Of a DNA stretch of 64,000 nt, positions 3,549-64,000 are shown one piece after another. The notes beneath the pieces were generated by a model. That model was not told the DNA's origin and did no database searches. It saw only the letters and a list, made by a program, of their open reading frames with translations. Source of the stretch: Chloroflexota bacterium (lineage in GTDB: Bacteria; Chloroflexota; UBA6077; FW602-bin22; JAMCVK01); NCBI GenBank assembly GCA_023475225.1, contig JAMCVK010000036.1, positions 26,164 to 90,163 of the forward strand, given 5' to 3'. Both the position numbers and the translations under genes were made by a program. Each line of letters begins with the position of its first letter. Positions within the stretch are counted from its first letter, which is position 1.

Positions 3549-4073
3549 ATGACACCACGAAAATCATCTAAGACAGAGCCCCAAATATTGGAGATTCCAT
3601 CGCAAAGGATGGCCGTGGTCCGTGCTAAGGGCGCCCCGGACAAGGTCTTCTCTGAGGTCCTGCCGGCGCTCTACAGTTCAGTTTATACACTAAAGTTTGA
3701 CCTCAAGAAGAAGGGAACGCCCACTTTCAAGGTCAGCCCTCCCCGCGCCCGCTATCCTGATGCTCACCTAGTGCCCAAAGAGGAGTGGACTCATATCATA
3801 GGCTTACCCATTCCTGAAGATACAACTTCTTTACCCCAGAAGGTGCCTAATGTTGAGGTCAAGATTGAGACTTGGGAATATGGCACCGTAGCCCAGATAC
3901 TTCACCTGGGACCTTATGACCAGGAGTATCCCACTGTTGAGCGCTTACATAAGTTCATTGAAGAGAACAGTTACGAGATAGCTGGTATGCACGAAGAGGA
4001 ATACCTCACTCGCCCCGAAGCCAAAGTCTCCAAGACTATTATCAGGTATCCGGTGAGGAAAATAAGGCGTTAG
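3549..4073 (+). CDS. GyrI-like / AraC effector-binding-domain small-molecule-binding protein
   Basis: 174 aa. The size and pattern (RMAVVRAKG...; WEYGTVAQILHLGPYDQEYPTVERLHKFIEENSYEI...HEEEYL) fit the GyrI-like fold. Assigned from memory of the family, with no HMM run. Confidence 0.55.
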   Translation: MTPRKSSKTEPQILEIPSQRMAVVRAKGAPDKVFSEVLPALYSSVYTLKFDLKKKGTPTFKVSPPRARYPDAHLVPKEEWTHIIGLPIPEDTTSLPQKVPNVEVKIETWEYGTVAQILHLGPYDQEYPTVERLHKFIEENSYEIAGMHEEEYLTRPEAKVSKTIIRYPVRKIRR

Positions 4074-4170
4074 AATAGGAAACTCTTGGGGTACCCTGAG
4101 TGAAGGGGACTGGGGTGAAGCTTTTTAAGCCCATTAAGGTTGGTTCCCTGGAGCTCAAGAAGAGACCAGC

Positions 4171-4208
4171 GAACAACGGGGGTTCCAAAACGGGGCAGGG
4201 CCTTTGGC
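4171..4208 (-). repeat. R1 repeat fragment, 3' module only
   Basis: GAACAACGGGGGTTCCAAAACGGGGCAGGGCCTTTGGC matches the reverse complement of the 3' end of the R1 copy at 43990-44035. Confidence 0.5.
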
Positions 4209-4271
4209 AATCAAGTAATTATATGGTAAAATTATATTACACAAGTTGTACAATAATTAGGAAGTACGAAC

Positions 4272-4997: not shown

Positions 4998-5231
4998 ATG
5001 CCCCTTCTTGACAGTTACTACAAGGTTCCAGAGGCAGCCATCTATCTGAGAGTCCGCCCGGAGACAGTAAAACGCCTTTGCCAGCGGGGGCGCATCCCCG
5101 CCGAGAAGGTTCACAATACCTGGCTCATTCAGAAAGAGAAGCTGGAGGAGTTCGCCGCGACCTACCGCAATCCGAGGCGTCTCAACGCTGGGGCATCCGC
5201 AGCCTCCTTGAAGCAGGATAGGGGGAGGTGA
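4998..5231 (+). CDS. Excisionase-family helix-turn-helix DNA-binding protein
   Basis: 77 aa. Contains AAIYLRVRPETVKRLCQRGRIPAEKV, a typical HTH_17/excisionase motif. It ends 7 nt before the methyltransferase start. Confidence 0.7.
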   Translation: MPLLDSYYKVPEAAIYLRVRPETVKRLCQRGRIPAEKVHNTWLIQKEKLEEFAATYRNPRRLNAGASAASLKQDRGR

Positions 5232-5237
5232 ACTGTT

Positions 5238-7262
5238 ATGGCCAGAAAACGACCTCCGAGTGGCGACCCCGACCGGGTCCGTGACTACCGATACGAGGAG
5301 GCTAAACGCAAGAACAATCCTGAAGTTGGGCTGGGCAAATATGAGCATGCGCTGCGAGAGCAGCGCAGGTATGAGTATGATCCCCACCTCAGCCCCACCC
5401 TGGTCTGGGCGGGCAAGGCCGAGCGCCAGTCCTTTGAGGTGCCCACCGTCTCCCTTCATATCCACGAGCGCATCTCCACCCGCGCTATCATCCACGCCGC
5501 CGAACGTCCGGAGAAGCAGCTCTCCCTTTTCGCCGACCCCCAGCTCCCTATGGACAAGCGGGTGGAGTTCTACCAGCATGAGATGAACTGGGCCAACCGC
5601 CTCATCCTGGGCGATTCCCTGCTGGTGGCGAACTCCCTGCTCCAGCGGGAGGGCATGGTGGGCAAGGCGCAGATGATCTATGTGGACCCGCCCTACGGCA
5701 TCTCCTACAGCTCCAACTTCCAGCCCACGGTGCACCAGCGGGATGTAAAGGACGGACAGGACGCCAGCCTGACCCGGGAGGTGATGCAGATAAAAGCCTT
5801 CCGGGATACCTGGACTCTGGGCATCCACTCCTACCTTACCTATCTGCGGGACCGCCTGCTGCTCTGCCGTGACTTGCTGGCCGAAAGCGGCTCCATCTTC
5901 GTCCAGATCGGCGACGAGAACCTGCATCTGGTGCGGGCACTGATGGATGAGGTGTTTCAAAAGGAGAACTTCGTTGGCGTTATCGTTTTTCGTAAATCAG
6001 GAAGTCAAACTGCCGAATATATTCCAGGCATATGCGACTATCTTATTTGGTATGCGAAAAGGAAAGATGAACTAAAATATCGGCAATTATTTGTTCCCAA
6101 GGATTTGGCCACTTCAGATGAGTTTCAAGAGGTCGAGTTGCCAGACGGAACACGACGAAGGTTAACACATGGAGAGAGGATGGGCTATGCACCCCTTCCT
6201 CAAGGTGCCAGAGTATTCAAATCTACTGATCTTCAGTCCCGGACAGGCTCTGAAGCCAGCCGACAGCCGTTTCAGTTTGCAGGTAAAGTTTGGCATCCAA
6301 GGGAGGGGGGCTGGAGAACAAACCCTTCAGGCCTGCAGAGATTAGCGGAAGCTGGTAGGCTTTTGCCGGAACGCACGGCGCTACGCTACATCCAATATCT
6401 TGAGGACTCTCCCGGTTCCTATTTGACCAACTTATGGTCCGACATGATGGGACAGCCAGAAAGGCAGTTCGCTGTTCAAACGAACACAAAGGTTGTCCAG
6501 CGCTGTATCCTCATGACCACCGACCCCGGCGACCTGGTGTTTGACCCCACCTGCGGCTCGGGAACCACGGCTTATGTGGCGGAGCAGTGGGGCAGGCGCT
6601 GGATCACCTGCGATACCTCAAGGGTGGCCCTGACCCTGGCCCGCCAGCGACTGCTCACCGCCACCTTCCCCTACTATGAGCTGGCCCACCCGGAGGAAGG
6701 TGTCTCCTCCGGTTTCAGGTATAAGATGGTGCCCCACATCACCTTGAAGTCCATCGCCCAGAACGAGCCGCCTCAGCAGGAGACCCTCTATGACCAGCCC
6801 TATGTGGACCGGAGCAAGGTGCGGGTGTCTGGGCCCTTCACTGTCGAGGCCATCCCAGCCCCAACCGTGGATACCCCCGAAGAGGCCGCTGTGCCCCCTA
6901 AAGAGGAACCAGTAGCCGTAGGCCCAACGGCTGACCCCGCTGGGAGCTACATCTCCAACATGATGGAGCTGCTGCGCCGGGACGGGCTTACCTTCCCCCA
7001 GGGCAAGAAGCTAACTCTTCAGAATGTGCGACCCTTAACCTCCAAGGTGCTCCACGCCGAGGCTGAAGCCCAGGAGAATGGGAAGTCGGTTCGGGTAGCC
7101 GTGTTCTTCGGCCCGCCTTTTGGGCCCGTGGATGCCAACCAGGTGCGCCAGGCGATAGAGGCTGCCGAATGGCATGATCGGCTAATCGTGGCCGGCTACA
7201 GCTTTGACTCCGAGGTGCAGGCCTTCCTCCAGAAGAGTCCTCACCCCCGCCTCAAGACCTAG
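5238..7262 (+). CDS. mod: Site-specific DNA methyltransferase, N6-adenine/N4-cytosine beta-class, type III Mod-like; ORF ends at an in-frame TAG
   Basis: 674 aa. Motif IV (VDPPYGISY) precedes motif I (VFDPTCGSGTTAYVAEQWGRRWITCD), which is the beta-class order. The same reading frame continues after the TAG at 7260-7262. Confidence 0.9.
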   Translation: MARKRPPSGDPDRVRDYRYEEAKRKNNPEVGLGKYEHALREQRRYEYDPHLSPTLVWAGKAERQSFEVPTVSLHIHERISTRAIIHAAERPEKQLSLFADPQLPMDKRVEFYQHEMNWANRLILGDSLLVANSLLQREGMVGKAQMIYVDPPYGISYSSNFQPTVHQRDVKDGQDASLTREVMQIKAFRDTWTLGIHSYLTYLRDRLLLCRDLLAESGSIFVQIGDENLHLVRALMDEVFQKENFVGVIVFRKSGSQTAEYIPGICDYLIWYAKRKDELKYRQLFVPKDLATSDEFQEVELPDGTRRRLTHGERMGYAPLPQGARVFKSTDLQSRTGSEASRQPFQFAGKVWHPREGGWRTNPSGLQRLAEAGRLLPERTALRYIQYLEDSPGSYLTNLWSDMMGQPERQFAVQTNTKVVQRCILMTTDPGDLVFDPTCGSGTTAYVAEQWGRRWITCDTSRVALTLARQRLLTATFPYYELAHPEEGVSSGFRYKMVPHITLKSIAQNEPPQQETLYDQPYVDRSKVRVSGPFTVEAIPAPTVDTPEEAAVPPKEEPVAVGPTADPAGSYISNMMELLRRDGLTFPQGKKLTLQNVRPLTSKVLHAEAEAQENGKSVRVAVFFGPPFGPVDANQVRQAIEAAEWHDRLIVAGYSFDSEVQAFLQKSPHPRLKT

Positions 7263-7949: not shown

Positions 7950-8017
7950 GTCCAAAGCTCCCCGTGGTCAAGGCCAGGGAGGTGGTTCTGGTGCTGCCTG
8001 TGCGTGAAAGGAGGTGA
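7946..8017 (+). pseudogene. hicA: HicA toxin N-terminal remnant (23 codons)
   Basis: A TTG start overlaps the hicB stop by 4 nt. It encodes (M)SPKLPVVKAREVVLVL.., a HicA-like start, then leaves the homology and stops where the next gene's RBS begins. Confidence 0.45.
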
Positions 8018-13268: not shown

Positions 13269-13340
13269 GGAGCCATGCAGCATTCGAACCTCCGACACCA
13301 TGATTAAGAGTCAGGTGCGCTACCTCTGAGCCAATGGCCC
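13269..13340 (-). tRNA. tRNA-Lys(CUU)-like sequence, probably a degenerate or pseudo tRNA
   Basis: The reverse complement GGGCCATTGGCTCAGAGGTAGCGCACCTGACTCTTAATCATGGTGTCGGAGGTTCGAATGCTGCATGGCTCC folds with a 7-bp acceptor stem and a CTCTTAA anticodon loop. However the T stem (GGAGG/GCTGC) has two G-G mismatches including 53-61, and the anticodon and D stems have one mismatch each. There is no encoded CCA. Confidence 0.45.
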
Positions 13341-25774: not shown

Positions 25775-26735
25775 GGGCGATGCACATAGATGATTTATCC
25801 AGGCTATGAAAATCATCATTGGGCTTATCAACGATGTCCAGGACCTTCTGGAAAAGGGGGATGGGATTGAAGGGGGAAGTCCCATCTTGATCCCAGGCGA
25901 ACTTGTCCAGCGAGGCGTGAATGCTGGCGGGTAAGGGCACACGTTCGAAAACGATCTGCTTGAAGAAATAGAGGATGTTATGGTTGAAGGGAAGACAGCG
26001 ATGGGTTAAACCCTCCATCTCTTCGACGGAGAGCGCAGCTTCTTGAACAAGCCTCTGAATCTCTGCGGGATAGTAGAGACGCAGGTGCATGGCCCAGATT
26101 CCCCCAAGGAGCCCCTTTTCTTTGCTGAAGTGTCCCAGGCCGAGGGCTTCCCTGGTCTTGTTGAGGGGGTCCCAGAAGAAGGGGTAGTTGTGGTTGGGGA
26201 CGGTTATGGCCACGATTCCCCCTGTCTTGAGGACGCGGCGTATCTCCCTTATGGCCTGGAGGTCATCGGGGACATGCTCCAGGAGCTCGGAGGCGATCAC
26301 CTTAGCGAAGCTCTCATCGGGGAAGGGGAGGCGAGTCGCATCGCCCTGGAGCAGGGTTACGCCTGACCTTTCCCCTAGCCTCTCTCTGGCTCGCGCCAGA
26401 AGTTTTCGGTCCAGGTCCAGCCCATAAAGTCGACAGTTGTACAATCGGGAAATGATCTCGAGGTAAAAGCCCTCGCCACAGCCACAGTCCAGAACAGTAT
26501 CGTCATCTTTAAGGTCCAGGTAGCGCAGGATGGTGCGTACGCGGCGGCGTAGTCCCATATCCCCCACATGGGAGAGCATCCTTTGTAGATGAGAGCGCTG
26601 AATATCTCTCCCAAACCCCCGCAGGGGGTTCAAGGTAGCCCCGTGAGCTTTTTTTGTGCTCTGGGGCACATCCCCAGCCCCCTTGGAACCCTGTTGTTCA
26701 ACAGTCTCTAGATCAGTCTCTTCCGCCTCAGTCAT
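25758..26735 (-). CDS. Class I SAM-dependent methyltransferase (Methyltransf_11-like)
   Basis: Motif I is VLDCGCGEGFY, followed by IASELLEHVPD. The first ~45 codons of the ORF are a translated R1 repeat. The alternative start is M53 at 26579 (MLSHVGDMGL). Confidence 0.8.
   Translation of the reverse strand: MTEAEETDLETVEQQGSKGAGDVPQSTKKAHGATLNPLRGFGRDIQRSHLQRMLSHVGDMGLRRRVRTILRYLDLKDDDTVLDCGCGEGFYLEIISRLYNCRLYGLDLDRKLLARARERLGERSGVTLLQGDATRLPFPDESFAKVIASELLEHVPDDLQAIREIRRVLKTGGIVAITVPNHNYPFFWDPLNKTREALGLGHFSKEKGLLGGIWAMHLRLYYPAEIQRLVQEAALSVEEMEGLTHRCLPFNHNILYFFKQIVFERVPLPASIHASLDKFAWDQDGTSPFNPIPLFQKVLDIVDKPNDDFHSLDKSSMCIALKARK
26598..26704 (+). repeat. R1 dispersed repeat, full copy lying between or within GT4 and methyltransferase coding sequence
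   Basis: CTGAATATCTCTCCCAAACCCCCGCAGGGGGTTCAAGGTAGCCCCGTGAGCTTTTTTTGTGCTCTGGGGCACATCCCCAGCCCCCTTGGAACCCTGTTGTTCAACAG. Confidence 0.8.
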
Positions 26736-58485: not shown

Positions 58486-59589
58486 CTATATGCTCAACTG
58501 GCGAGGGTAGTCTGTCAGTGGTTCCCAACCTGTTTCGCTGACCAAGACTACGTCTTCCAGGCGAACCCCACCGATATGGGGAACGAATAGGATGGAATGT
58601 CCGGCTGTGATAGTCATGCCTGTCTGGAGTACAACGCGCCCATCGCCGGGCACGATGGTCGGAGCAGGGGTTTCCTCGAAGGCCAAGCCTATACCGTGGC
58701 TGATGCCCCGCACGAAATATTGTCCGTAACCCGCGTTGGATAGCGCCCGTTCTGCCGCGGCATCCAGGGCTGAGACCGCTACACCGGGTTTGATGGTTTC
58801 CAGGACGGCTCGCTGCGCTGCCAGGTAGGCCTCGAACAGTCTTTGTTGCGGTTCAGTGGGTTCTCCCAGGACGACTGTTCTGGCCAGGTTGGCACAGTAG
58901 CCGTGGTAGATGGGAAGCAGGTCGAGGACGATCAGCTCTCCCTGATTGATCATCTTATAGGTGGATCGACCATGTAGCCAGCCGGAGCGATAGCCTGAAT
59001 TGACGAAGGTAGGAACGGCTACTCCCTGGGCACCGGCGCGGCGCATGGCGTACTCAGCCTCGGCTGCCACCTCATTTTCCATGACCCCATCTTTAATGGT
59101 GGACATAGCGGCCTTCATCCCAATGGCCGCTATCTCGGCTGCCTTGCGCATAAAGGAGAGCTCCTCGTCCGTTTTGATCATTCTCAGCGGCATGATCACC
59201 GCTGCTGAATTCACTACACGCACCTTCGGGTTTGCTCTCTGGAATCTATCCACCAGGAAATAGGGGGTAGTGAATCCCATCTGTATGCCGATCGTTCCCT
59301 CCTGGAGGCCCAACTCGGCAAGGGTCTTGATCACAGCGTTCATCTGTTCCCCTAGGCTGCTGAAGGTGCGGACGACCTTGGCCCCTGTCTTGGCCTGTAC
59401 CTCCTCCAACTCCTCTCGGAAGGCGATAACGACCGGTTCGCCCTCCCTGGGGATAATCGCCCGTGGTTGGTTCCGCTGTTCACCTATAAAATAGAGGTAC
59501 TCATCGTGGTTCAGGAGAAGGAGGGCATCTATGCCGTGTTCCCCCATCAGTTTTTGGACCTCTCTTATCCGATCCTCACGAATAGGCAT
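58486..59589 (-). CDS. M24-family metallopeptidase (Xaa-Pro aminopeptidase/creatinase-like)
   Basis: 367 aa. Has a creatinase-type N-domain and a pita-bread domain with metal-ligand context (DLLPIYHGYCANLART, ISHGIGLAFEE, VRLED). Confidence 0.85.
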   Translation of the reverse strand: MPIREDRIREVQKLMGEHGIDALLLLNHDEYLYFIGEQRNQPRAIIPREGEPVVIAFREELEEVQAKTGAKVVRTFSSLGEQMNAVIKTLAELGLQEGTIGIQMGFTTPYFLVDRFQRANPKVRVVNSAAVIMPLRMIKTDEELSFMRKAAEIAAIGMKAAMSTIKDGVMENEVAAEAEYAMRRAGAQGVAVPTFVNSGYRSGWLHGRSTYKMINQGELIVLDLLPIYHGYCANLARTVVLGEPTEPQQRLFEAYLAAQRAVLETIKPGVAVSALDAAAERALSNAGYGQYFVRGISHGIGLAFEETPAPTIVPGDGRVVLQTGMTITAGHSILFVPHIGGVRLEDVVLVSETGWEPLTDYPRQLSI

Positions 59590-59633
59590 CTCGACTTCCT
59601 CCGATTAGTAGTCTTGATAATAGATTGAGGGTG

Positions 59634-59763
59634 TCGATATCTCCCCCCAAATCCGCCTTCGGCGGATTCAAGATAGCCCTGCAGGCTTTCTCTTTGTTCT
59701 GAGGGCACATCCGAAAGACCCCGGCCAAAGGGGCTGCGCCGCCTTAGAACCCGCACTGTTCAA
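59634..59763 (+). repeat. R1 dispersed repeat, full copy
   Basis: GATATCTCCCCCCAAATCCGCCTTCGGCGGATTCAAGATAGCCCTGCAGGCTTTCTCTTTGTTCTGAGGGCACATCCGAAAGACCCCGGCCAAAGGGGCTGCGCCGCCTTAGAACCCGCACTGTTCAA. Confidence 0.8.
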
Positions 59764-59818
59764 ATTATAGATTGACTAAATTAGATGTGTCAACCGAAGG
59801 CTTGGTTGCTTGGCTGCA

Positions 59819-59847
59819 TTGACAGGTGCGCTATAATTTGCTATATT
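59819..59847 (+). promoter_or_regulatory. Sigma70-type promoter (TTGACA - 17 nt - TATATT) upstream of the 60060 operon
   Basis: -35 at 59819-59824 and -10 at 59842-59847, read directly from the sequence. Confidence 0.5.
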
Positions 59848-59925
59848 TTAGCAAGGTGATGAGGCTCACCCTGCCTGGGCAGAAAGTGGCCTGGGTCAGA
59901 GTGTCAGGTAACTGACTGATAGCTT

Positions 59926-59966
59926 CTACTGGCCCGCCTGCGGCGGGCACGGTAGAGGCTTTTTTT
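59926..59966 (+). terminator. Strong GC hairpin plus T7 tract in the leader of the 60060 operon: a possible attenuator or sRNA terminator
   Basis: CTACTGGCCCGCC-TGC-GGCGGGCACGGTAG forms 13 bp with one bulge, followed by AGGC and TTTTTTT. It lies ~80 nt after the predicted TSS and ~95 nt before the ATG at 60060. Confidence 0.45.
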
Positions 59967-60059
59967 GTTGGGGTGGGTCATGCCCTCAGGTAGGGGGCGT
60001 CGGTCGCTGCCTGGACCATTTGAACTGAAATTTAGAGAGGCGAGCGTCAGGGTAGAAGT

Positions 60060-61496
60060 ATGCCACGCGATTTGAGCACTATAGATTTGGAGATAGCCTT
60101 CGAACAGGCTGGGTGCCCTATCTGCCACCTCGTTCTGCAAAAAGAGAAACGCTGGCTATGGTCCTTGCTCTGGGAGAACGTCAATGACCCAGGTATCCGG
60201 GCAGGGATCGCTGCCTCCTGGGGCTTCTGTTACGAACATGCCTGGAAGTTAGCAGCGCTGGAAAGGGATGAGTTTGGAAGCTGCCTGGGAACGGCGATTA
60301 TCTATGAGGATCTGGTCAATCGCCTCTGGCGACGCAGTAAGTCGAAGGGGATAACAAAAGGGTCCGGGGATGGTTATAGAGAAGTGAGATGGACCCCTGG
60401 TGAGGGTAAAGGGTTGCTCTCCATCATCGGGGGACGTTCGTGTCCGGCATGCATTGCTAATAGGGAGATGGAAGAAATCTATCTGTCCTGGTTGGTTGTC
60501 CACTGCGCTGAGGATTGGTTCGCCACCCTCTATCGGGACTCGACAGGGATGTGCTTGAACCATCTTAAGCGGGCATTGCAGGTGGCTGGGCGAAGCGATG
60601 TACGACGCTTTCTGCTTGAAGTGCAGTTGGAGAAGCTCAGCAGCCTCAAGGAAGGGGATGGTGATCAGGGGCTATCCCCCTTGCCTGAGGCTATTCAGCT
60701 GAGCACTCAATCTAAAATATTAAATCTAATGGTAGGGGCAAACAGAAGGTGGGCTAAAGGTTTGAAGATAGGTATGTCCTCCGCTGAGCTTCTGGAAAGG
60801 GCAGGCTGTCCTATTTGCATGTCGCAGGGGGAAGCTGAACGTCTCCACTTGCAGGGTCTGTTGGAAGAAGAGGGGGGCGACAAGGCTGATGACTGGCCAT
60901 CAGCCTGGCTTTGTCGGGAGCATGCCTGGATGTTATATGGATTGGGTGAACCCTACCGCTCGAGCCTGATCTCTCTTTATGTGAGTGGGCTACAGGATTT
61001 AAGTGGAGAGTTACATCGCCTACACCAGGTGGAGACTTCACTAAGAGGGGAAAGGAGGCCACTCTTGACCAGATGGCGTTGGGATCGGGGTCGACGTATC
61101 CTTTCACTGCCGCCGACCTGTCCCATCTGCGACCGATTGAGGGAAGACGAGCTGGAACAGACTGTGCGATTCCGGGAAGCTCTATCAATCGAAGGGCAGG
61201 CGAACAGCCTTCAGCAGGGCCATGCTCTATGCTTGCCTCACCTCCGTCTCACTCTGTCTGATCAGCCATTGATGGTGGACAAGGCGCTCATCTGGTCATA
61301 CTTGACCAGGATAGAGGAGCTTTCCTCTCAGCTGCGGGAGTATATTCGTAAACACGATTGGCGTTTTCGGGACGAGCCAAGGGGAGAGGAACAGATGGCT
61401 TGGTTTAGGGCGATCGAGCTGTTTGTGGGCAGCCATCCCCATGCTTATGCTGAGGAGCGGCCACATGGATATTTTTGCAGGTACACAGGCACGTAA
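60060..61496 (+). CDS. Tandem-duplicated CxxC/CxxH zinc-motif protein, DUF6062-like
   Basis: 478 aa. Module 1: GCPICH...GFCYEHAW...SCPACI...MCLNHL. Module 2: GCPICM...WLCREHAW...TCPICD...LCLPHL. The C-terminus is IRKHDWRFRDEPRGEEQMAWFRAIELFVG. Confidence 0.7.
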   Translation: MPRDLSTIDLEIAFEQAGCPICHLVLQKEKRWLWSLLWENVNDPGIRAGIAASWGFCYEHAWKLAALERDEFGSCLGTAIIYEDLVNRLWRRSKSKGITKGSGDGYREVRWTPGEGKGLLSIIGGRSCPACIANREMEEIYLSWLVVHCAEDWFATLYRDSTGMCLNHLKRALQVAGRSDVRRFLLEVQLEKLSSLKEGDGDQGLSPLPEAIQLSTQSKILNLMVGANRRWAKGLKIGMSSAELLERAGCPICMSQGEAERLHLQGLLEEEGGDKADDWPSAWLCREHAWMLYGLGEPYRSSLISLYVSGLQDLSGELHRLHQVETSLRGERRPLLTRWRWDRGRRILSLPPTCPICDRLREDELEQTVRFREALSIEGQANSLQQGHALCLPHLRLTLSDQPLMVDKALIWSYLTRIEELSSQLREYIRKHDWRFRDEPRGEEQMAWFRAIELFVGSHPHAYAEERPHGYFCRYTGT

Positions 61497-61998
61497 AGTA
61501 GAACTTCATATGTTAGAGGAGACCTATCAAGAGGCACAGCGTCTCATTCGTGAGAATGGCTGGGATGAGGAAGAGGGACTGCTCATCATCTTTGCTAATG
61601 GGCTTGCCTACCTCAAGGAAGCGCATGCCTTGCCTGACTCGGAGTCAGATTCAGCCCTCACGCTCATGTCCTCTATCACAGAGCGCTGTGCCCACTTTGA
61701 AAGCATGTACGCGGTGATGAAATTTCGAGCCTACTATCTGAATGAAGATAAGCGTATCCTAGAGCTTAACGTCACAGGGCTGCAGGCTGATAATGATGGT
61801 CTACGACATCGCATCAATCTGTTTCGTCAGGATGAAGCACGCCTCAAGGAAGAGATCAAGCGATTGACAACCGAGAACACTGAACTGCACCGACATTTGG
61901 CTGAGCTTCAGGGGAATAGGCAACAGGATGAGCCGACTGAGCGACAAAAAGAAACCATCCTGTCTAGGATCAGCGCTCTCCTCAGTAGCTGGCGGTAA
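61465..61998 (+). CDS. Coiled-coil protein of unknown function
   Basis: The likely start is ATG 61465, 7 nt after GAGGAG (track ORF 61423; alternative start 61510). The C-terminal heptad-rich segment is LRHRINLFRQDEARLKEEIKRLTTENTELHRHLAELQ. Confidence 0.55.
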   Translation: MDIFAGTQARKVELHMLEETYQEAQRLIRENGWDEEEGLLIIFANGLAYLKEAHALPDSESDSALTLMSSITERCAHFESMYAVMKFRAYYLNEDKRILELNVTGLQADNDGLRHRINLFRQDEARLKEEIKRLTTENTELHRHLAELQGNRQQDEPTERQKETILSRISALLSSWR

Positions 61999-62113
61999 AT
62001 ACATAGTAGCCCACCAAGAAGGCAGCAACACTTCGGTTCAGGGAGATAGCTTACAGAATAACTATCTCGCTTAGGGGTCACCATAGACCATCTGATATAT
62101 TCAGTAAGAGGCC

Positions 62114-63697
62114 ATGGTTAGGGGGTTAACCGGCGATATGAGCCATACTCAAGTACAACGCTCATCTGATGGGATGACCATAGACGTATTAATTGAGCTA
62201 CCGGGCCATGACTGCAATATATATGAATATGACAAGCGCCGCGAGGCCATCAGGCTAAAACAAGTTCACTATGCCACTGAGCACTATCCGGTGGATTGGG
62301 GCATTATCCCACATACCCTAACCCCAGAGGGGAGTGAGCTGGACGTTTTACTGGTGACAAACCAGTCTAACTTTCCCGGTTGCCTCGTGTTGGCCCATCC
62401 CATCGGTTTCCTGGAGCGGCGTGATGGTTCGGCAACGGAACAGGCAGTGGTCGCTGTTCCGTTGGGTGATTCTCAGCTCAACCATATCCACGATATCCAG
62501 GACCTTCCATATGATCGCCGCCATGGGATAGAAATCCTCTACAATCATCGTGGAGAACAGCTGATCACCGATACCCTCAATTGGCATGGGGCAGTTGAGG
62601 CAGAGTATCTCATCCACGAGGCTCGCCGTAGGGCTACTCTGGAACGCCTTGAAGGTGAGAGTGAGAGAGGGCGGCGTGGTGGCTTCGGCTGGAAGGCGGG
62701 GGTTGGACTCAAGCCCCGCTGGCTGGCCACAGAGATGGAGGCCCACACGGCGGCAGAATACGCTGTCCATAAGCTACCTTATCGCTTCCAGGAGTATGTG
62801 GAGGATTGCCTGCTGCCTGAGGAGAGGATATTGCTCTTCATCAGCCGTCCACCTGTAACCAGTAGATGGTCGTTTATCCGCCGCAAACAGTTGAATGAGG
62901 GTATTCTGGTAATCACTGACCGGCAGGTCATGATGATGACCGATACCATCCCGCCTGATTCTACGCTGGTTCATTGGGGATATAAGGCGAGAGTGAGCGC
63001 CATAGAGAGGCTCTCTACAGTGTACGTCAACAAAGATTCATCCTACGCTGTCTTAAAGTTAGTCTTCGAGGCCCTTGCCGGAAAAGAGACAATGACTATC
63101 GAGTTCCCCACGGATCAATGGCTGTGGCTGGAGAGGGCGAAGGAATTGTTAGAAAGGTTTATTCCAGGCGAGGCCTCCACAGCCTTACGGCGACTCTACC
63201 AGACAGAGGGACAGAAGGATCGTCGTGGAGTGGTGCTGGTTGATTGGGATGATCCGGCGAGGGAAGCGAGCATAACTGAGCTCAGCGCCGTCCTGCCTCA
63301 ACTTCTGGGGGAGGGCGAGGAGGTGCTGGCGAAAGCCTTGGCCCCATCCTGGCCAGCGAAGAGAAGGCTGCCAACACTGTTAGCGGTCACTAACCAACGG
63401 GTGCTCCTCCTCCCAACCGACTATCGTAGGGCCGAATCTGATGGCTGGGAAGCTTATGCTATCGGGGAACTCTCCTCTGTAGAGTTGCATCACTCCCTTC
63501 TTGGCTGCTGGATTGAATTGGCCGTCCCGGCCGGTGATATCATCCGGCGGATTAGGTTGGAGTTTGAGAGCCCATCCATCAGACCATTTCGTAGTGTCTT
63601 CTCAGCCACTCGTCAGTTGATGGGGCAGCCATTCGCATCAGCGGAGCTCCAGTCATCTCATCTTGTGCCGATGAGGGATAAGAGAGTACCGGTTTAG
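62114..63697 (+). CDS. Fusion of a family-I inorganic-pyrophosphatase-like domain (degenerate active site) with two PH/GRAM-like (bPH-type) domains
   Basis: 527 aa. The N-terminus IDVLIELPGHDCNIYEYDK...YPVDWGIIPHTL..GSELDVLLV...PGCLVLAHPIGFL is colinear with soluble PPases. The C-terminal segments EERILLFISRPP...GILVITDRQVMMMTD and LLAVTNQRVLLLPTD...ELSSVELHHSLLGCWIEL look like bacterial PH domains. Confidence 0.6.
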   Translation: MVRGLTGDMSHTQVQRSSDGMTIDVLIELPGHDCNIYEYDKRREAIRLKQVHYATEHYPVDWGIIPHTLTPEGSELDVLLVTNQSNFPGCLVLAHPIGFLERRDGSATEQAVVAVPLGDSQLNHIHDIQDLPYDRRHGIEILYNHRGEQLITDTLNWHGAVEAEYLIHEARRRATLERLEGESERGRRGGFGWKAGVGLKPRWLATEMEAHTAAEYAVHKLPYRFQEYVEDCLLPEERILLFISRPPVTSRWSFIRRKQLNEGILVITDRQVMMMTDTIPPDSTLVHWGYKARVSAIERLSTVYVNKDSSYAVLKLVFEALAGKETMTIEFPTDQWLWLERAKELLERFIPGEASTALRRLYQTEGQKDRRGVVLVDWDDPAREASITELSAVLPQLLGEGEEVLAKALAPSWPAKRRLPTLLAVTNQRVLLLPTDYRRAESDGWEAYAIGELSSVELHHSLLGCWIELAVPAGDIIRRIRLEFESPSIRPFRSVFSATRQLMGQPFASAELQSSHLVPMRDKRVPV

Positions 63698-63706
63698 GGT
63701 TAGCAG

Positions 63707-64000
63707 ATGGTAATCTATTGCCCACGCTGCTGGATGGAGAACAGTCCTGGGAGCACGGTTTGCCAACGTTGCGGGGCTTCGCTCCAGGGACTAGCCGAGG
63801 AAGACTTTGTGGCCAAGTTGATCTCCGCTTTAAGGCATCCCGAACCAGCCACGCCCCGGCGGGCTGCCTGGATCCTGGGCGAGCTACACGAGGCCAGTGG
63901 TGTCGAGCCTTTGATCAAGGCGCTGGAAATCAGCAAGGATCCCTATCTCCTGGAGAGCATTGTGGAGGCGCTGGGCAAGATAGGTAATGCGCGGGCGATC
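63707..64000 (+). CDS. Zinc-ribbon plus HEAT-repeat (PBS-lyase HEAT-like) protein, 3'-truncated by the window edge
   Basis: The frame starting at ATG 63707 reads MVIYCPRCWMENSPGSTVCQRCGASL...RRAAWILGELHEASGVEPLIKALEISKDPYLLESIVEALGKIGNARAI. It is open to the end of the window. It is not in the ORF track, which shows another frame at 63718..63987. Confidence 0.7.
   Translation, partial: MVIYCPRCWMENSPGSTVCQRCGASLQGLAEEDFVAKLISALRHPEPATPRRAAWILGELHEASGVEPLIKALEISKDPYLLESIVEALGKIGNARAI

Follow-up and report, generated by a model that had tools for sequence, protein, structure and literature searches.

Which signal governs an operon of uncharacterised genes at the end of a 64,000-nucleotide (nt) stretch of a metagenome-assembled Chloroflexota genome, and what might the encoded proteins do? 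The stretch, referred to below as the window, comprises positions 26,164 to 90,163 of contig JAMCVK010000036.1 (assembly GCA_023475225.1), and the operon begins close to its right-hand end. An earlier note on this DNA described four co-directional genes preceded by a near-consensus promoter and a structured leader, and viewed their products as a signalling or assembly module rather than metabolism. All four genes are indeed present as open reading frames. Comparative analyses of the leader and of related loci point to a more specific answer: the operon is very likely fluoride-inducible, its transcription being antiterminated by a riboswitch in the leader. The promoter and leader consist of the following features.

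59819-59847, plus strand: sigma-70-type promoter, with -35 TTGACA (59819-59824), a 17-nt spacer containing TG, and -10 TATATT (59842-59847)
59855-59929, plus strand: predicted fluoride riboswitch aptamer (crcB motif), insertion variant, recognised with Rfam RF01734 and covariance model R2
59855-59858 with 59867-59870, plus strand: aptamer helix P1 (GGUG/CACC), closing the loop AUGAGGCU
59861-59866 (GAGGCU) with 59921-59926 (AGCUUC), plus strand: aptamer pseudoknot, 6 of 6 base pairs (bp)
59871-59899, plus strand: extra aptamer hairpin of 29 nt between P1 and P3
59903-59907 with 59912-59916, plus strand: aptamer helix P3 (GUCAG-GUAA-CUGAC)
59917-59920 and 59927-59929, plus strand: conserved aptamer linker UGAU and tail UAC
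59923-59966, plus strand: intrinsic terminator serving as expression platform, a 16-bp bulged hairpin followed by C and U7 (5' arm 59923-59938, loop 59939-59941, 3' arm 59942-59958, U7 59960-59966)

The promoter matches 11 of the 12 consensus positions and has the TG extension in addition, in agreement with the earlier note, and the start of transcription read from the sequence (~59854) is located directly at the 5' end of P1. That the leader is structured also holds, as it folds far more stably than shuffled sequence (z-score -4.6), but it is not a generic leader: its anatomy is that of a fluoride riboswitch which a terminator overlaps. When positions 59400-60300 (901 nt) were scanned permissively with Rfam, the sole match was to RF01734 at 59846-59935 (24.7 bits, E 1.9e-4), and this family is not among the matches in a gathering-threshold scan of the window, a shortfall in score which arises because the 29-nt hairpin is counted as an insert by the Rfam model. 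The class-invariant nucleotides GAUG, CUGAU and CUAC are all kept, and the invariant columns agree with the Rfam consensus. The window RNA resembles known members of the class, the Thermotoga petrophila aptamer and the Bacillus cereus crcB ON switches, in its P1 with the 8-nt loop AUGNNGNN, its 6-bp pseudoknot, its P3 directly 5' of UGAU, its CUAC tail and a terminator competing for the 3' strand of the pseudoknot. It differs from them in the hairpin added between P1 and P3 (29 nt here, 17-75 nt in its relatives), and in that the genes under its control are uncharacterised families instead of crcB or eriC-F.

The terminator hairpin has a stability of -27.6 kcal/mol, and the strand AGCUUCUAC is common to the 3' strand of the aptamer pseudoknot and the 5' arm of the terminator. 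Since both structures use AGCUUCUAC, pseudoknot and terminator are mutually exclusive, and the predicted architecture of the leader follows the usual design of fluoride riboswitches that turn transcription ON. Transcription starting at the promoter would thus produce the aptamer at once. Without fluoride, AGCUUCUAC would pair downstream, giving the strong terminator with its U7 and a stop before gene 1, while with fluoride, bound as a Mg-F cluster as in known crcB-motif RNAs, AGCUUCUAC would be held in the pseudoknot, the terminator would be blocked and read-through would reach five genes. These would encode the tandem DUF6062 protein, the coiled-coil protein, the pseudo-pyrophosphatase with its two PH-like modules, the zinc-ribbon/HEAT protein and, beyond the window on an identical public Logan contig (L007), a histidine phosphatase. 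The genes in the window are the following.

60060-61496, plus strand: gene 1, tandem-duplicated DUF6062 protein (Pfam PF19538), 478 amino acids (aa), predicted all-helical, with four Cys3His sites
61465-61998, plus strand: gene 2, 177 aa, a conserved N-terminal region followed by a C-terminal coiled coil, overlapping gene 1 by 32 nt
62114-63697, plus strand: gene 3, 527 aa, a degenerate family-I pyrophosphatase domain (~22-185) followed by two plausibly PH-like modules of a beta-sandwich plus helix (~212-350 and ~378-505), from PF00719, AlphaFold and hhalign
63707-64000, plus strand: gene 4, zinc-ribbon/HEAT protein (CPRC...CQRC, HEAT_2), cut by the end of the window and 164 aa at full length on L007

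In order to compare the leader with those of related operons, 76 further loci were fetched with an alignment of the gene-3 family (A1), and 84 sources were searched. A regular-expression search, which is biased to canonical cores, found 44 fluoride-riboswitch cores in these sources and was replaced by two covariance models, R1 and R2. Among the parsed cores the architecture stays the same while the helix sequences vary, and some carry an insertion of 17-75 nt between P1 and P3. Across a 30-sequence alignment (A2), 97.3% of the cells are paired, compared to 36-52% when the partners are slid by one to three columns; compensatory changes are seen in 10 of the 15 pairs, and the observed covariation was reached by no shuffle. 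P1 and P3 are 99.2% and 92.5% paired, respectively, with eight of their nine pairs compensatory, and two pairs of the pseudoknot covary as well (AU/GC/GU and UA/CG). R1 gave 78 matches above 30 bits in the 84 sources, approximately 34 of them outside its training set. R2, built leaving out the window sequence, recognised the window leader with 55.1 bits (E 1.3e-13) as the only significant match in the 64 kilobases (kb), the next best scoring 14.5 bits, and neither model found a further riboswitch copy in the window. Of the 77 distinct leaders, 40 could be read by the motif parser, and in 30 of these a terminator likewise overlaps the strand of the pseudoknot. The scores against RF01734 before homologous operons range from 22 to 43 bits, with three at or above 34; sub-threshold matches of 22-25.5 bits end 47-54 nt before operons whose gene-3 proteins are 42% identical to that of the window. 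The insertion as such is compatible with a match above the Rfam threshold, which the insertion-bearing element of L087 reaches with 35.0 bits, and the insertion-bearing form is found alongside the canonical one, within shared loci and before the same gene families, including operons that contain crcB. A weak and partial R1 match (22.6 bits, model positions 10-68 only) was also seen in L001 (11982-12028, minus strand), on the opposite strand between a 140-aa gene and an MFS gene and at the same spot in L002, L003, L011 and L012; it is probably due to chance or a fragment.

The placement of the RNA is also conserved among the related loci. The neighbourhood statements rely on contig gene calls where these are available; our own greedy calls of open reading frames are crude, with some starts wrong and operon chains broken. 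After dereplication of the gene-3 lineages at 80% identity, a riboswitch on the same strand and within 3.3 kb upstream is found in 27 of the 32 informative lineages, and the genes between riboswitch and gene 3 encode the gene-2 coiled-coil family, DUF6062, a 277-aa prenyltransferase-like toroid or a 166-aa family. In a sample of seven DUF6062 loci, picked independently of gene 3 and by the length of their contigs alone, the riboswitch is located directly upstream of the DUF6062 operon in six (L084, L085, L086, L087, L088 and L089); the seventh operon (L090) is cut by the end of its contig, with a riboswitch before a Na+/H+ exchanger gene close by. Three of the RNAs in these sampled loci exceed the Rfam gathering score (43.3, 38.1 and 35.0 bits).

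The genes which accompany these RNAs include many that are classically related to fluoride. In L086, a fluoride island, one riboswitch leads co-directional genes for Na_H_Exchanger, Usp, a 170-aa protein, the pyrophosphatase-PH protein, MFS and CrcB, and a separate upstream riboswitch leads those for a 117-aa protein, a HAD hydrolase, an 85-aa protein, a tandem DUF6062 protein and a DUF190-CBS protein, with a DUF6062-like gene, an adjacent enolase gene, a HEAT_2 protein and an ArsB/CitMHS transporter further upstream. In L088 the riboswitch is followed by DUF6062, MoxR, DUF58, DUF4129, DUF6062, TerC, MFS, Na_H_Exchanger, Usp-CBS and His_Phos_1 in a co-directional run, and in L084 a His_Phos_1 gene stands just upstream of the riboswitch, behind which are two DUF6062 genes, a gene-2 family member and the pyrophosphatase-PH gene. 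L087 combines DUF6062, a gene-2 homologue, a zinc-ribbon/HEAT protein and a second gene-2 homologue. In L006 (3912-10740) a riboswitch with a 75-nt insertion, not detected by Rfam's own model at E <= 1, precedes two MutS_V-only genes, DUF6062, a DUF6062::enolase fusion (P0046, 696 aa) and His_Phos_1. Taken over the related loci, the operons behind the same RNA include genes for CrcB, Na_H_Exchanger, Usp, enolase, HAD, HIT and MutS_V; MutS genes were reportedly associated with fluoride riboswitches by Baker et al. in 2012. The four families of the window operon are linked in other genomes too, and appear to be an accessory fluoride-stress set of variable gene order whose carriers, where the organism is named, belong to the Chloroflexi/Chloroflexota. 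The earlier note had named matches in a known pathway as grounds against its reading; such a link, to the fluoride stress response, does exist, although it comes through the RNA and not through protein hidden Markov models (HMMs).

Several further observations were made in these loci. The 277-aa prenyltransferase-like alpha/alpha-toroid protein (PF00432, E 1e-20) stands between the coiled-coil and pyrophosphatase-PH genes in approximately 27 loci (for example L017 3596-5134, L024 and L042), the commonest order being riboswitch, coiled coil, toroid and pyrophosphatase-PH. A triad of a MoxR-type AAA ATPase, DUF58 and DUF4129 is found in or beside riboswitch-controlled DUF6062 or pyrophosphatase-PH operons (L088 2376-6011, L090 813-3143, and also L008, L009 and L020). 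Fluoride islands with four to five fluoride riboswitches on both strands within at most 17 kb are present in L076 (5474-12299), L070 (1113-10597) and L083 (7407-15388), and one of the fluoride riboswitches in L076 precedes subunits resembling those of hydrogenase-4/formate-hydrogen-lyase. Some gene-3 members with at least 1.6 kb of upstream sequence have no detectable fluoride riboswitch (L051, L053, L054 and L055, with the gene-3 match at 8001 or 5307, and L049, L052, L063 and L077), and may be differently regulated.

Turning to the proteins, gene 1 was correctly described as a tandem DUF6062 protein with four Cys/His sites. Two stretches match PF19538 in an HMM search (74.6 bits for the whole protein), each half alone exceeds the cut-off of 27 bits (47.4 and 31.8 bits), and the halves align to each other with 28% identity (E 3e-8) and their CxxC/CxxH motifs in register. 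The four Cys3His quartets (C19/C22/C57/H60, C128/C131/C165/H168, C250/C253/C285/H288 and C354/C357/C391/H394) are invariant in 32 tandem homologues with the exception of H288 and C357, which are conserved in at least 90%. The AlphaFold model is all-helical (predicted local distance difference test, pLDDT, 82; predicted template modelling score 0.84), and no relatives were found among solved structures, either by Foldseek in the Protein Data Bank or by sequence profile. The public record names the product 'DUF6062 family protein', and no mention of DUF6062 was found in a literature search. The doubled CxxC...CxxH pattern is common to the gene 1 units and the single-unit members of 265-300 aa; gene 1 holds two units in one chain, L084 encodes them in separate adjacent genes and P0046 carries a unit fused to enolase. 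The adjacent DUF6062 genes of L084 (6273-7861; 243 and 286 aa) take the place of the fused 478-aa gene of the window, which suggests a heterodimer that became a tandem fusion. In L076 (~5000-5480, minus strand) and L082 (~3800-4250, minus strand) the gene that comes first behind a canonical fluoride riboswitch encodes a small DUF2180-like protein rich in Cys (PF09947, E 7e-7), and a tandem DUF6062 gene follows it.

The overlap of some 32 nt between genes 1 and 2 is borne out by the best start of gene 2, ATG 61465, with a GAGGAG Shine-Dalgarno sequence and in agreement with the start called on L007. The description of its product as mostly coiled coil applies to the C-terminal half, where weak coiled-coil family matches are found; the N-terminal half has none. 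According to a cluster HMM the gene-2 family occurs in 30 sources, that is 28 loci besides the window and L007, and the gene-4 family in ten, the window and L007 included. The combination of a CPRC...CQRC zinc ribbon and HEAT repeats proposed for gene 4 is upheld by its full-length form on L007, which scores 72.9 bits against HEAT_2 (threshold 27.7); the zinc ribbon, with the CPRC...CQRC motif explicit in the sequence, remains just sub-threshold against DZR (26.4 versus 27.3) and Zn_Ribbon_1 (23.1 versus 25). None of genes 1-4 scored above the NCBIfam cut-offs, in line with the earlier statement that the proteins have no assigned function.

The expectation that the operon continues past the window was likewise right, as L007 completes gene 4 and adds gene 5, a His_Phos_1 protein of 205 aa belonging to branch 1 of the histidine phosphatase superfamily (PF00300, 217.8 bits), after which a convergent parB/parA pair follows. 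The operon consequently has five genes and not four, and with an ordinary-looking histidine phosphatase as its fifth gene it is not free of metabolism, as the earlier note would have had it. The closest NCBIfam models of gene 5 are metal-independent PspA-type phosphoserine phosphatase, acid phosphatase and dPGM types, none of which reaches its equivalog cut-off. This His_Phos_1 gene is the only one in the window operon among the fluoride-associated families of the related loci, and no homologues of the CrcB, MFS, MutS-related, Na+/H+ antiporter and HIT proteins of those loci were found in the window.

Residues 25-173 of gene 3 match PF00719 (E 3.6e-26, 92.3 bits versus a threshold of 23.5), as do all 18 family members, and the model superposes on solved pyrophosphatases (Foldseek E 7e-14 to the Mycobacterium tuberculosis enzyme), with a sequence match to the Sulfolobus acidocaldarius pyrophosphatase 1qez (E 2e-21). 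The active site was checked at 14 positions of the Escherichia coli enzyme (E20, K29, E31, R43, Y51, Y55, D65, D67, D70, D97, D102, K104, Y141 and K142), by alignment to solved pyrophosphatases. Gene 3 keeps E20, E31, Y51, D70 and D97, has six non-conservative swaps (K29I, R43Q, D67S, K104A, Y141R and K142G) and is further altered at Y55W, D65E and D102E, and the 18 family members conserve none of the 14 positions. The NCBIfam pyrophosphatase equivalog cut-offs are not reached (77 versus 200 bits). Compared to family I pyrophosphatases (E. coli 1i40, S. acidocaldarius 1qez), gene 3 thus shares the fold and the overall sequence but lacks conserved catalytic and substrate residues, and adds a C-terminal extension of 340 aa made of two beta modules. 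The identity of an active pyrophosphatase was rejected on account of the replaced active-site residues, although the public record names the product 'inorganic diphosphatase'.

The invariant residues of the gene-3 family are situated in the C-terminal part and not in the pyrophosphatase domain, and include W193, AE214-215, LPxRF221-225, ER237-238, TD268-269, D277, P281, WG288-289 and E298. AlphaFold (pLDDT 76) predicts behind the pyrophosphatase fold two modules of approximately seven strands and a C-terminal helix, and by hhalign the two are homologues (94.9%, E 4e-8). The earlier reading of gene 3 as a pyrophosphatase-PH fusion therefore stands as regards a pseudo-pyrophosphatase with two homologous modules, while their PH identity is sub-threshold: bPH_3 (PF14470) matches the modules of gene 3 with E 0.03-0.06, and a weak similarity is seen in six of the 18 family members, none of which reaches the Pfam threshold. 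Foldseek searches with gene 3 were dominated by the pyrophosphatase domain and uninformative on the modules. A PH-like identity is plausible, given the likeness to bacterial PH domains (bPH_3 and relatives) in the predicted strands and C-terminal helix; the modules differ in their cytoplasmic location and in their fusion to a pyrophosphatase-like domain. The first search for the gene-3 family, which is rare, gave 18 matches, and the C-terminal module family has 210 representatives (50% identity, E <= 1e-3) among 1.84 billion proteins. In nearly all of its carriers the module extends from residue 170-190 onward, that is behind a pyrophosphatase-like domain.

How does this operon relate to known fluoride systems? 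The known fluoride regulon is made up of exporters, Na+/H+ antiporters and additional enolase and pyrophosphatase copies (PMC11139923), typical riboswitch-associated genes being those for pyrophosphatase, enolase, Na+/H+ antiporters and phosphoesterases (PMC11139923). In Enterobacter cloacae FRM, the experimentally characterised fluoride-riboswitch operon ppaC-uspA-eno-gpmA-crcB confers fluoride resistance (PMC5533749), and overproduction of fluoride-inhibited enzymes is an established strategy (PMC5533749, PMC11139923). Like this operon, given at its full extent as ppaC-uspA-eno-gpmA-crcB-orf5249 (PMC5533749), the window has one riboswitch over several genes. Both operons pair a pyrophosphatase-type protein with one of the histidine-phosphatase/phosphoglycerate-mutase type, and the likeness is extended by the enolase, Usp and CrcB of the related Chloroflexota loci. 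The ppaC gene encodes a family-II pyrophosphatase. The homologue in the window, in contrast, belongs to family I, has a degenerate catalytic site and carries two PH-like modules, and the window operon lacks exporter, enolase and Usp and adds the DUF6062, coiled-coil and zinc-ribbon/HEAT proteins. A literature search for fluoride riboswitches in Chloroflexi found no relevant paper.

This combination suggests, if tentatively, how the proteins could act. DUF6062 may be a metal-binding, probably zinc-binding, helical pseudo-dimer, an assignment made with low confidence, and its partners would be classic Mg-dependent targets of fluoride or relics of such, namely enolase (fused or adjacent) and a dead pyrophosphatase (adjacent). 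The coiled-coil and HEAT proteins would form the scaffold of a complex that protects, regulates or replaces phosphoryl-transfer steps poisoned by fluoride, and the metal-independent histidine phosphatase may contribute phosphatase or mutase activity insensitive to fluoride. That DUF6062 works together with fluoride-target enzymes or their relics in this specific manner is possible, yet clearly less probable than the regulation of the operon by fluoride. Equally tentative is the broader proposal that the products of genes 1-4 constitute a fluoride-tolerance machine of Chloroflexota, either as a metal-containing complex docking on Mg-dependent enzymes such as enolase or with the pyrophosphatase relic as a sensor of fluoride/Mg-F or of pyrophosphate.

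Other explanations can be weighed against this one. The operon might provide replacement enzymes as in E. cloacae FRM, with gene 3 an active and perhaps fluoride-insensitive pyrophosphatase bearing a regulatory C-terminus, gene 5 phosphoglycerate mutase-like and the rest accessory. The strong PF00719 match, the superposition on solved pyrophosphatases and the name in the public record all agree with such a role, as does the fact that overexpression of fluoride-inhibited enzymes is established (PMC5533749, PMC11139923). It is nevertheless improbable, as the swapped residues include D67 and the pyrophosphate-binding K29, R43, K104, Y141 and K142, no active-site position is conserved in the family, the equivalog cut-offs are missed by a wide score difference (77 versus 200 bits), and what the family holds invariant is found in the C-terminal modules. 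A module for metal or redox sensing, engaged in signalling or assembly independently of fluoride, would likewise account for the sixteen invariant or nearly invariant Cys/His residues of gene 1, for the scaffold-type domains and for the lack of an intact enzyme signature in genes 1-4; it would consist of a Cys/His sensor and a coiled-coil and HEAT scaffold behind a generic structured 5' untranslated region. The leader is, however, specifically a crcB-motif RNA with covariation, the riboswitch precedes the same families in most lineages, and the neighbourhoods are full of classic fluoride genes, which makes a fluoride-independent module quite improbable; signalling as part of the fluoride response would be compatible with these observations.

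The RNA itself could have decayed to a relic or have switched to another ligand, with the hairpin disrupting fluoride binding and the operon constitutive or responsive to something else. Sub-threshold Rfam scores for the window and several homologues (22-29 bits) and the insertion of 17-75 nt between P1 and P3 would fit a relic. The retention of GAUG, CUGAU and CUAC, the covarying pseudoknot and helices and the conserved interplay with the terminator speak against this, and the insertion-bearing form both shares loci and gene families with the canonical one, including crcB-containing operons, and exceeds the Rfam threshold in L087; this explanation is very improbable. The fluoride-inducible operon accordingly remains the preferred reading, with some points that weigh against it. 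The window leader scores below the RF01734 gathering score of 34, five of the 32 informative gene-3 lineages have no detectable upstream riboswitch, and the window has no fluoride exporter. The pairing of the pseudoknot was required by the selection pattern, and its 100% pairing is therefore circular, which does not affect P1 and P3. Many of the related loci stem from few metagenome projects and are not phylogenetically independent. Fluoride binding by the insertion variant is taken from class membership, and the complex and the protective role of the gene 1-4 proteins are deduced from gene fusion and neighbourhood only. The regulatory conclusion considered by itself, where the anatomy of the RNA, its covariation and its placement are observed and the response to the ligand follows from the class, is as probable as the fluoride-inducible operon or slightly more so; that fluoride would turn the operon on is what we infer from membership of the class.

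Fluoride riboswitches are the main handle on how cells cope with fluoride. Although the class as such is known, its insertion-bearing, sub-threshold subtype appears to be undescribed, as does the fluoride link of the DUF6062, pseudo-pyrophosphatase/2xPH, coiled-coil and zinc-ribbon/HEAT families. The regulon would gain DUF6062, the pseudo-pyrophosphatase with PH-like modules and the coiled-coil and zinc-ribbon/HEAT families across a phylum, to which the related loci would add the prenyltransferase-like toroid and MoxR-DUF58-DUF4129, and DUF6062 would receive its first functional context, as far as we found. With its current threshold Rfam misses a riboswitch subtype that these genomes commonly carry. 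A specific clue, and one open to testing, is that DUF6062 is repeatedly paired with the two enzymes that are textbook targets of fluoride inhibition, enolase in a fusion and pyrophosphatase in the form of a relic. If the proposed machine exists, it would protect, reactivate or re-route metabolism under fluoride stress in a way distinct from export (Fluc/CLC-F) and from enzyme overproduction, and its components may offer targets for understanding and engineering fluoride tolerance, for instance in organofluorine bioremediation.

Elsewhere in the window, a divergent and perfect sigma-70 promoter (TTGACA-18-TATAAT, 59764-59793, minus strand) is located approximately 170 nt upstream of an M24-peptidase-like gene (58486-59589), the leader of which (59590-59757, minus strand) has no unusual structure (z-score -0.47) and no Rfam match. 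A cobalamin riboswitch (RF00174, 54520-54663, minus strand; 60.6 bits, E 1.5e-12) heads a minus-strand gene cluster that extends down to ~41468, and a tRNA gene is present at 13269-13340 (minus strand; Rfam tRNA, 37 bits).

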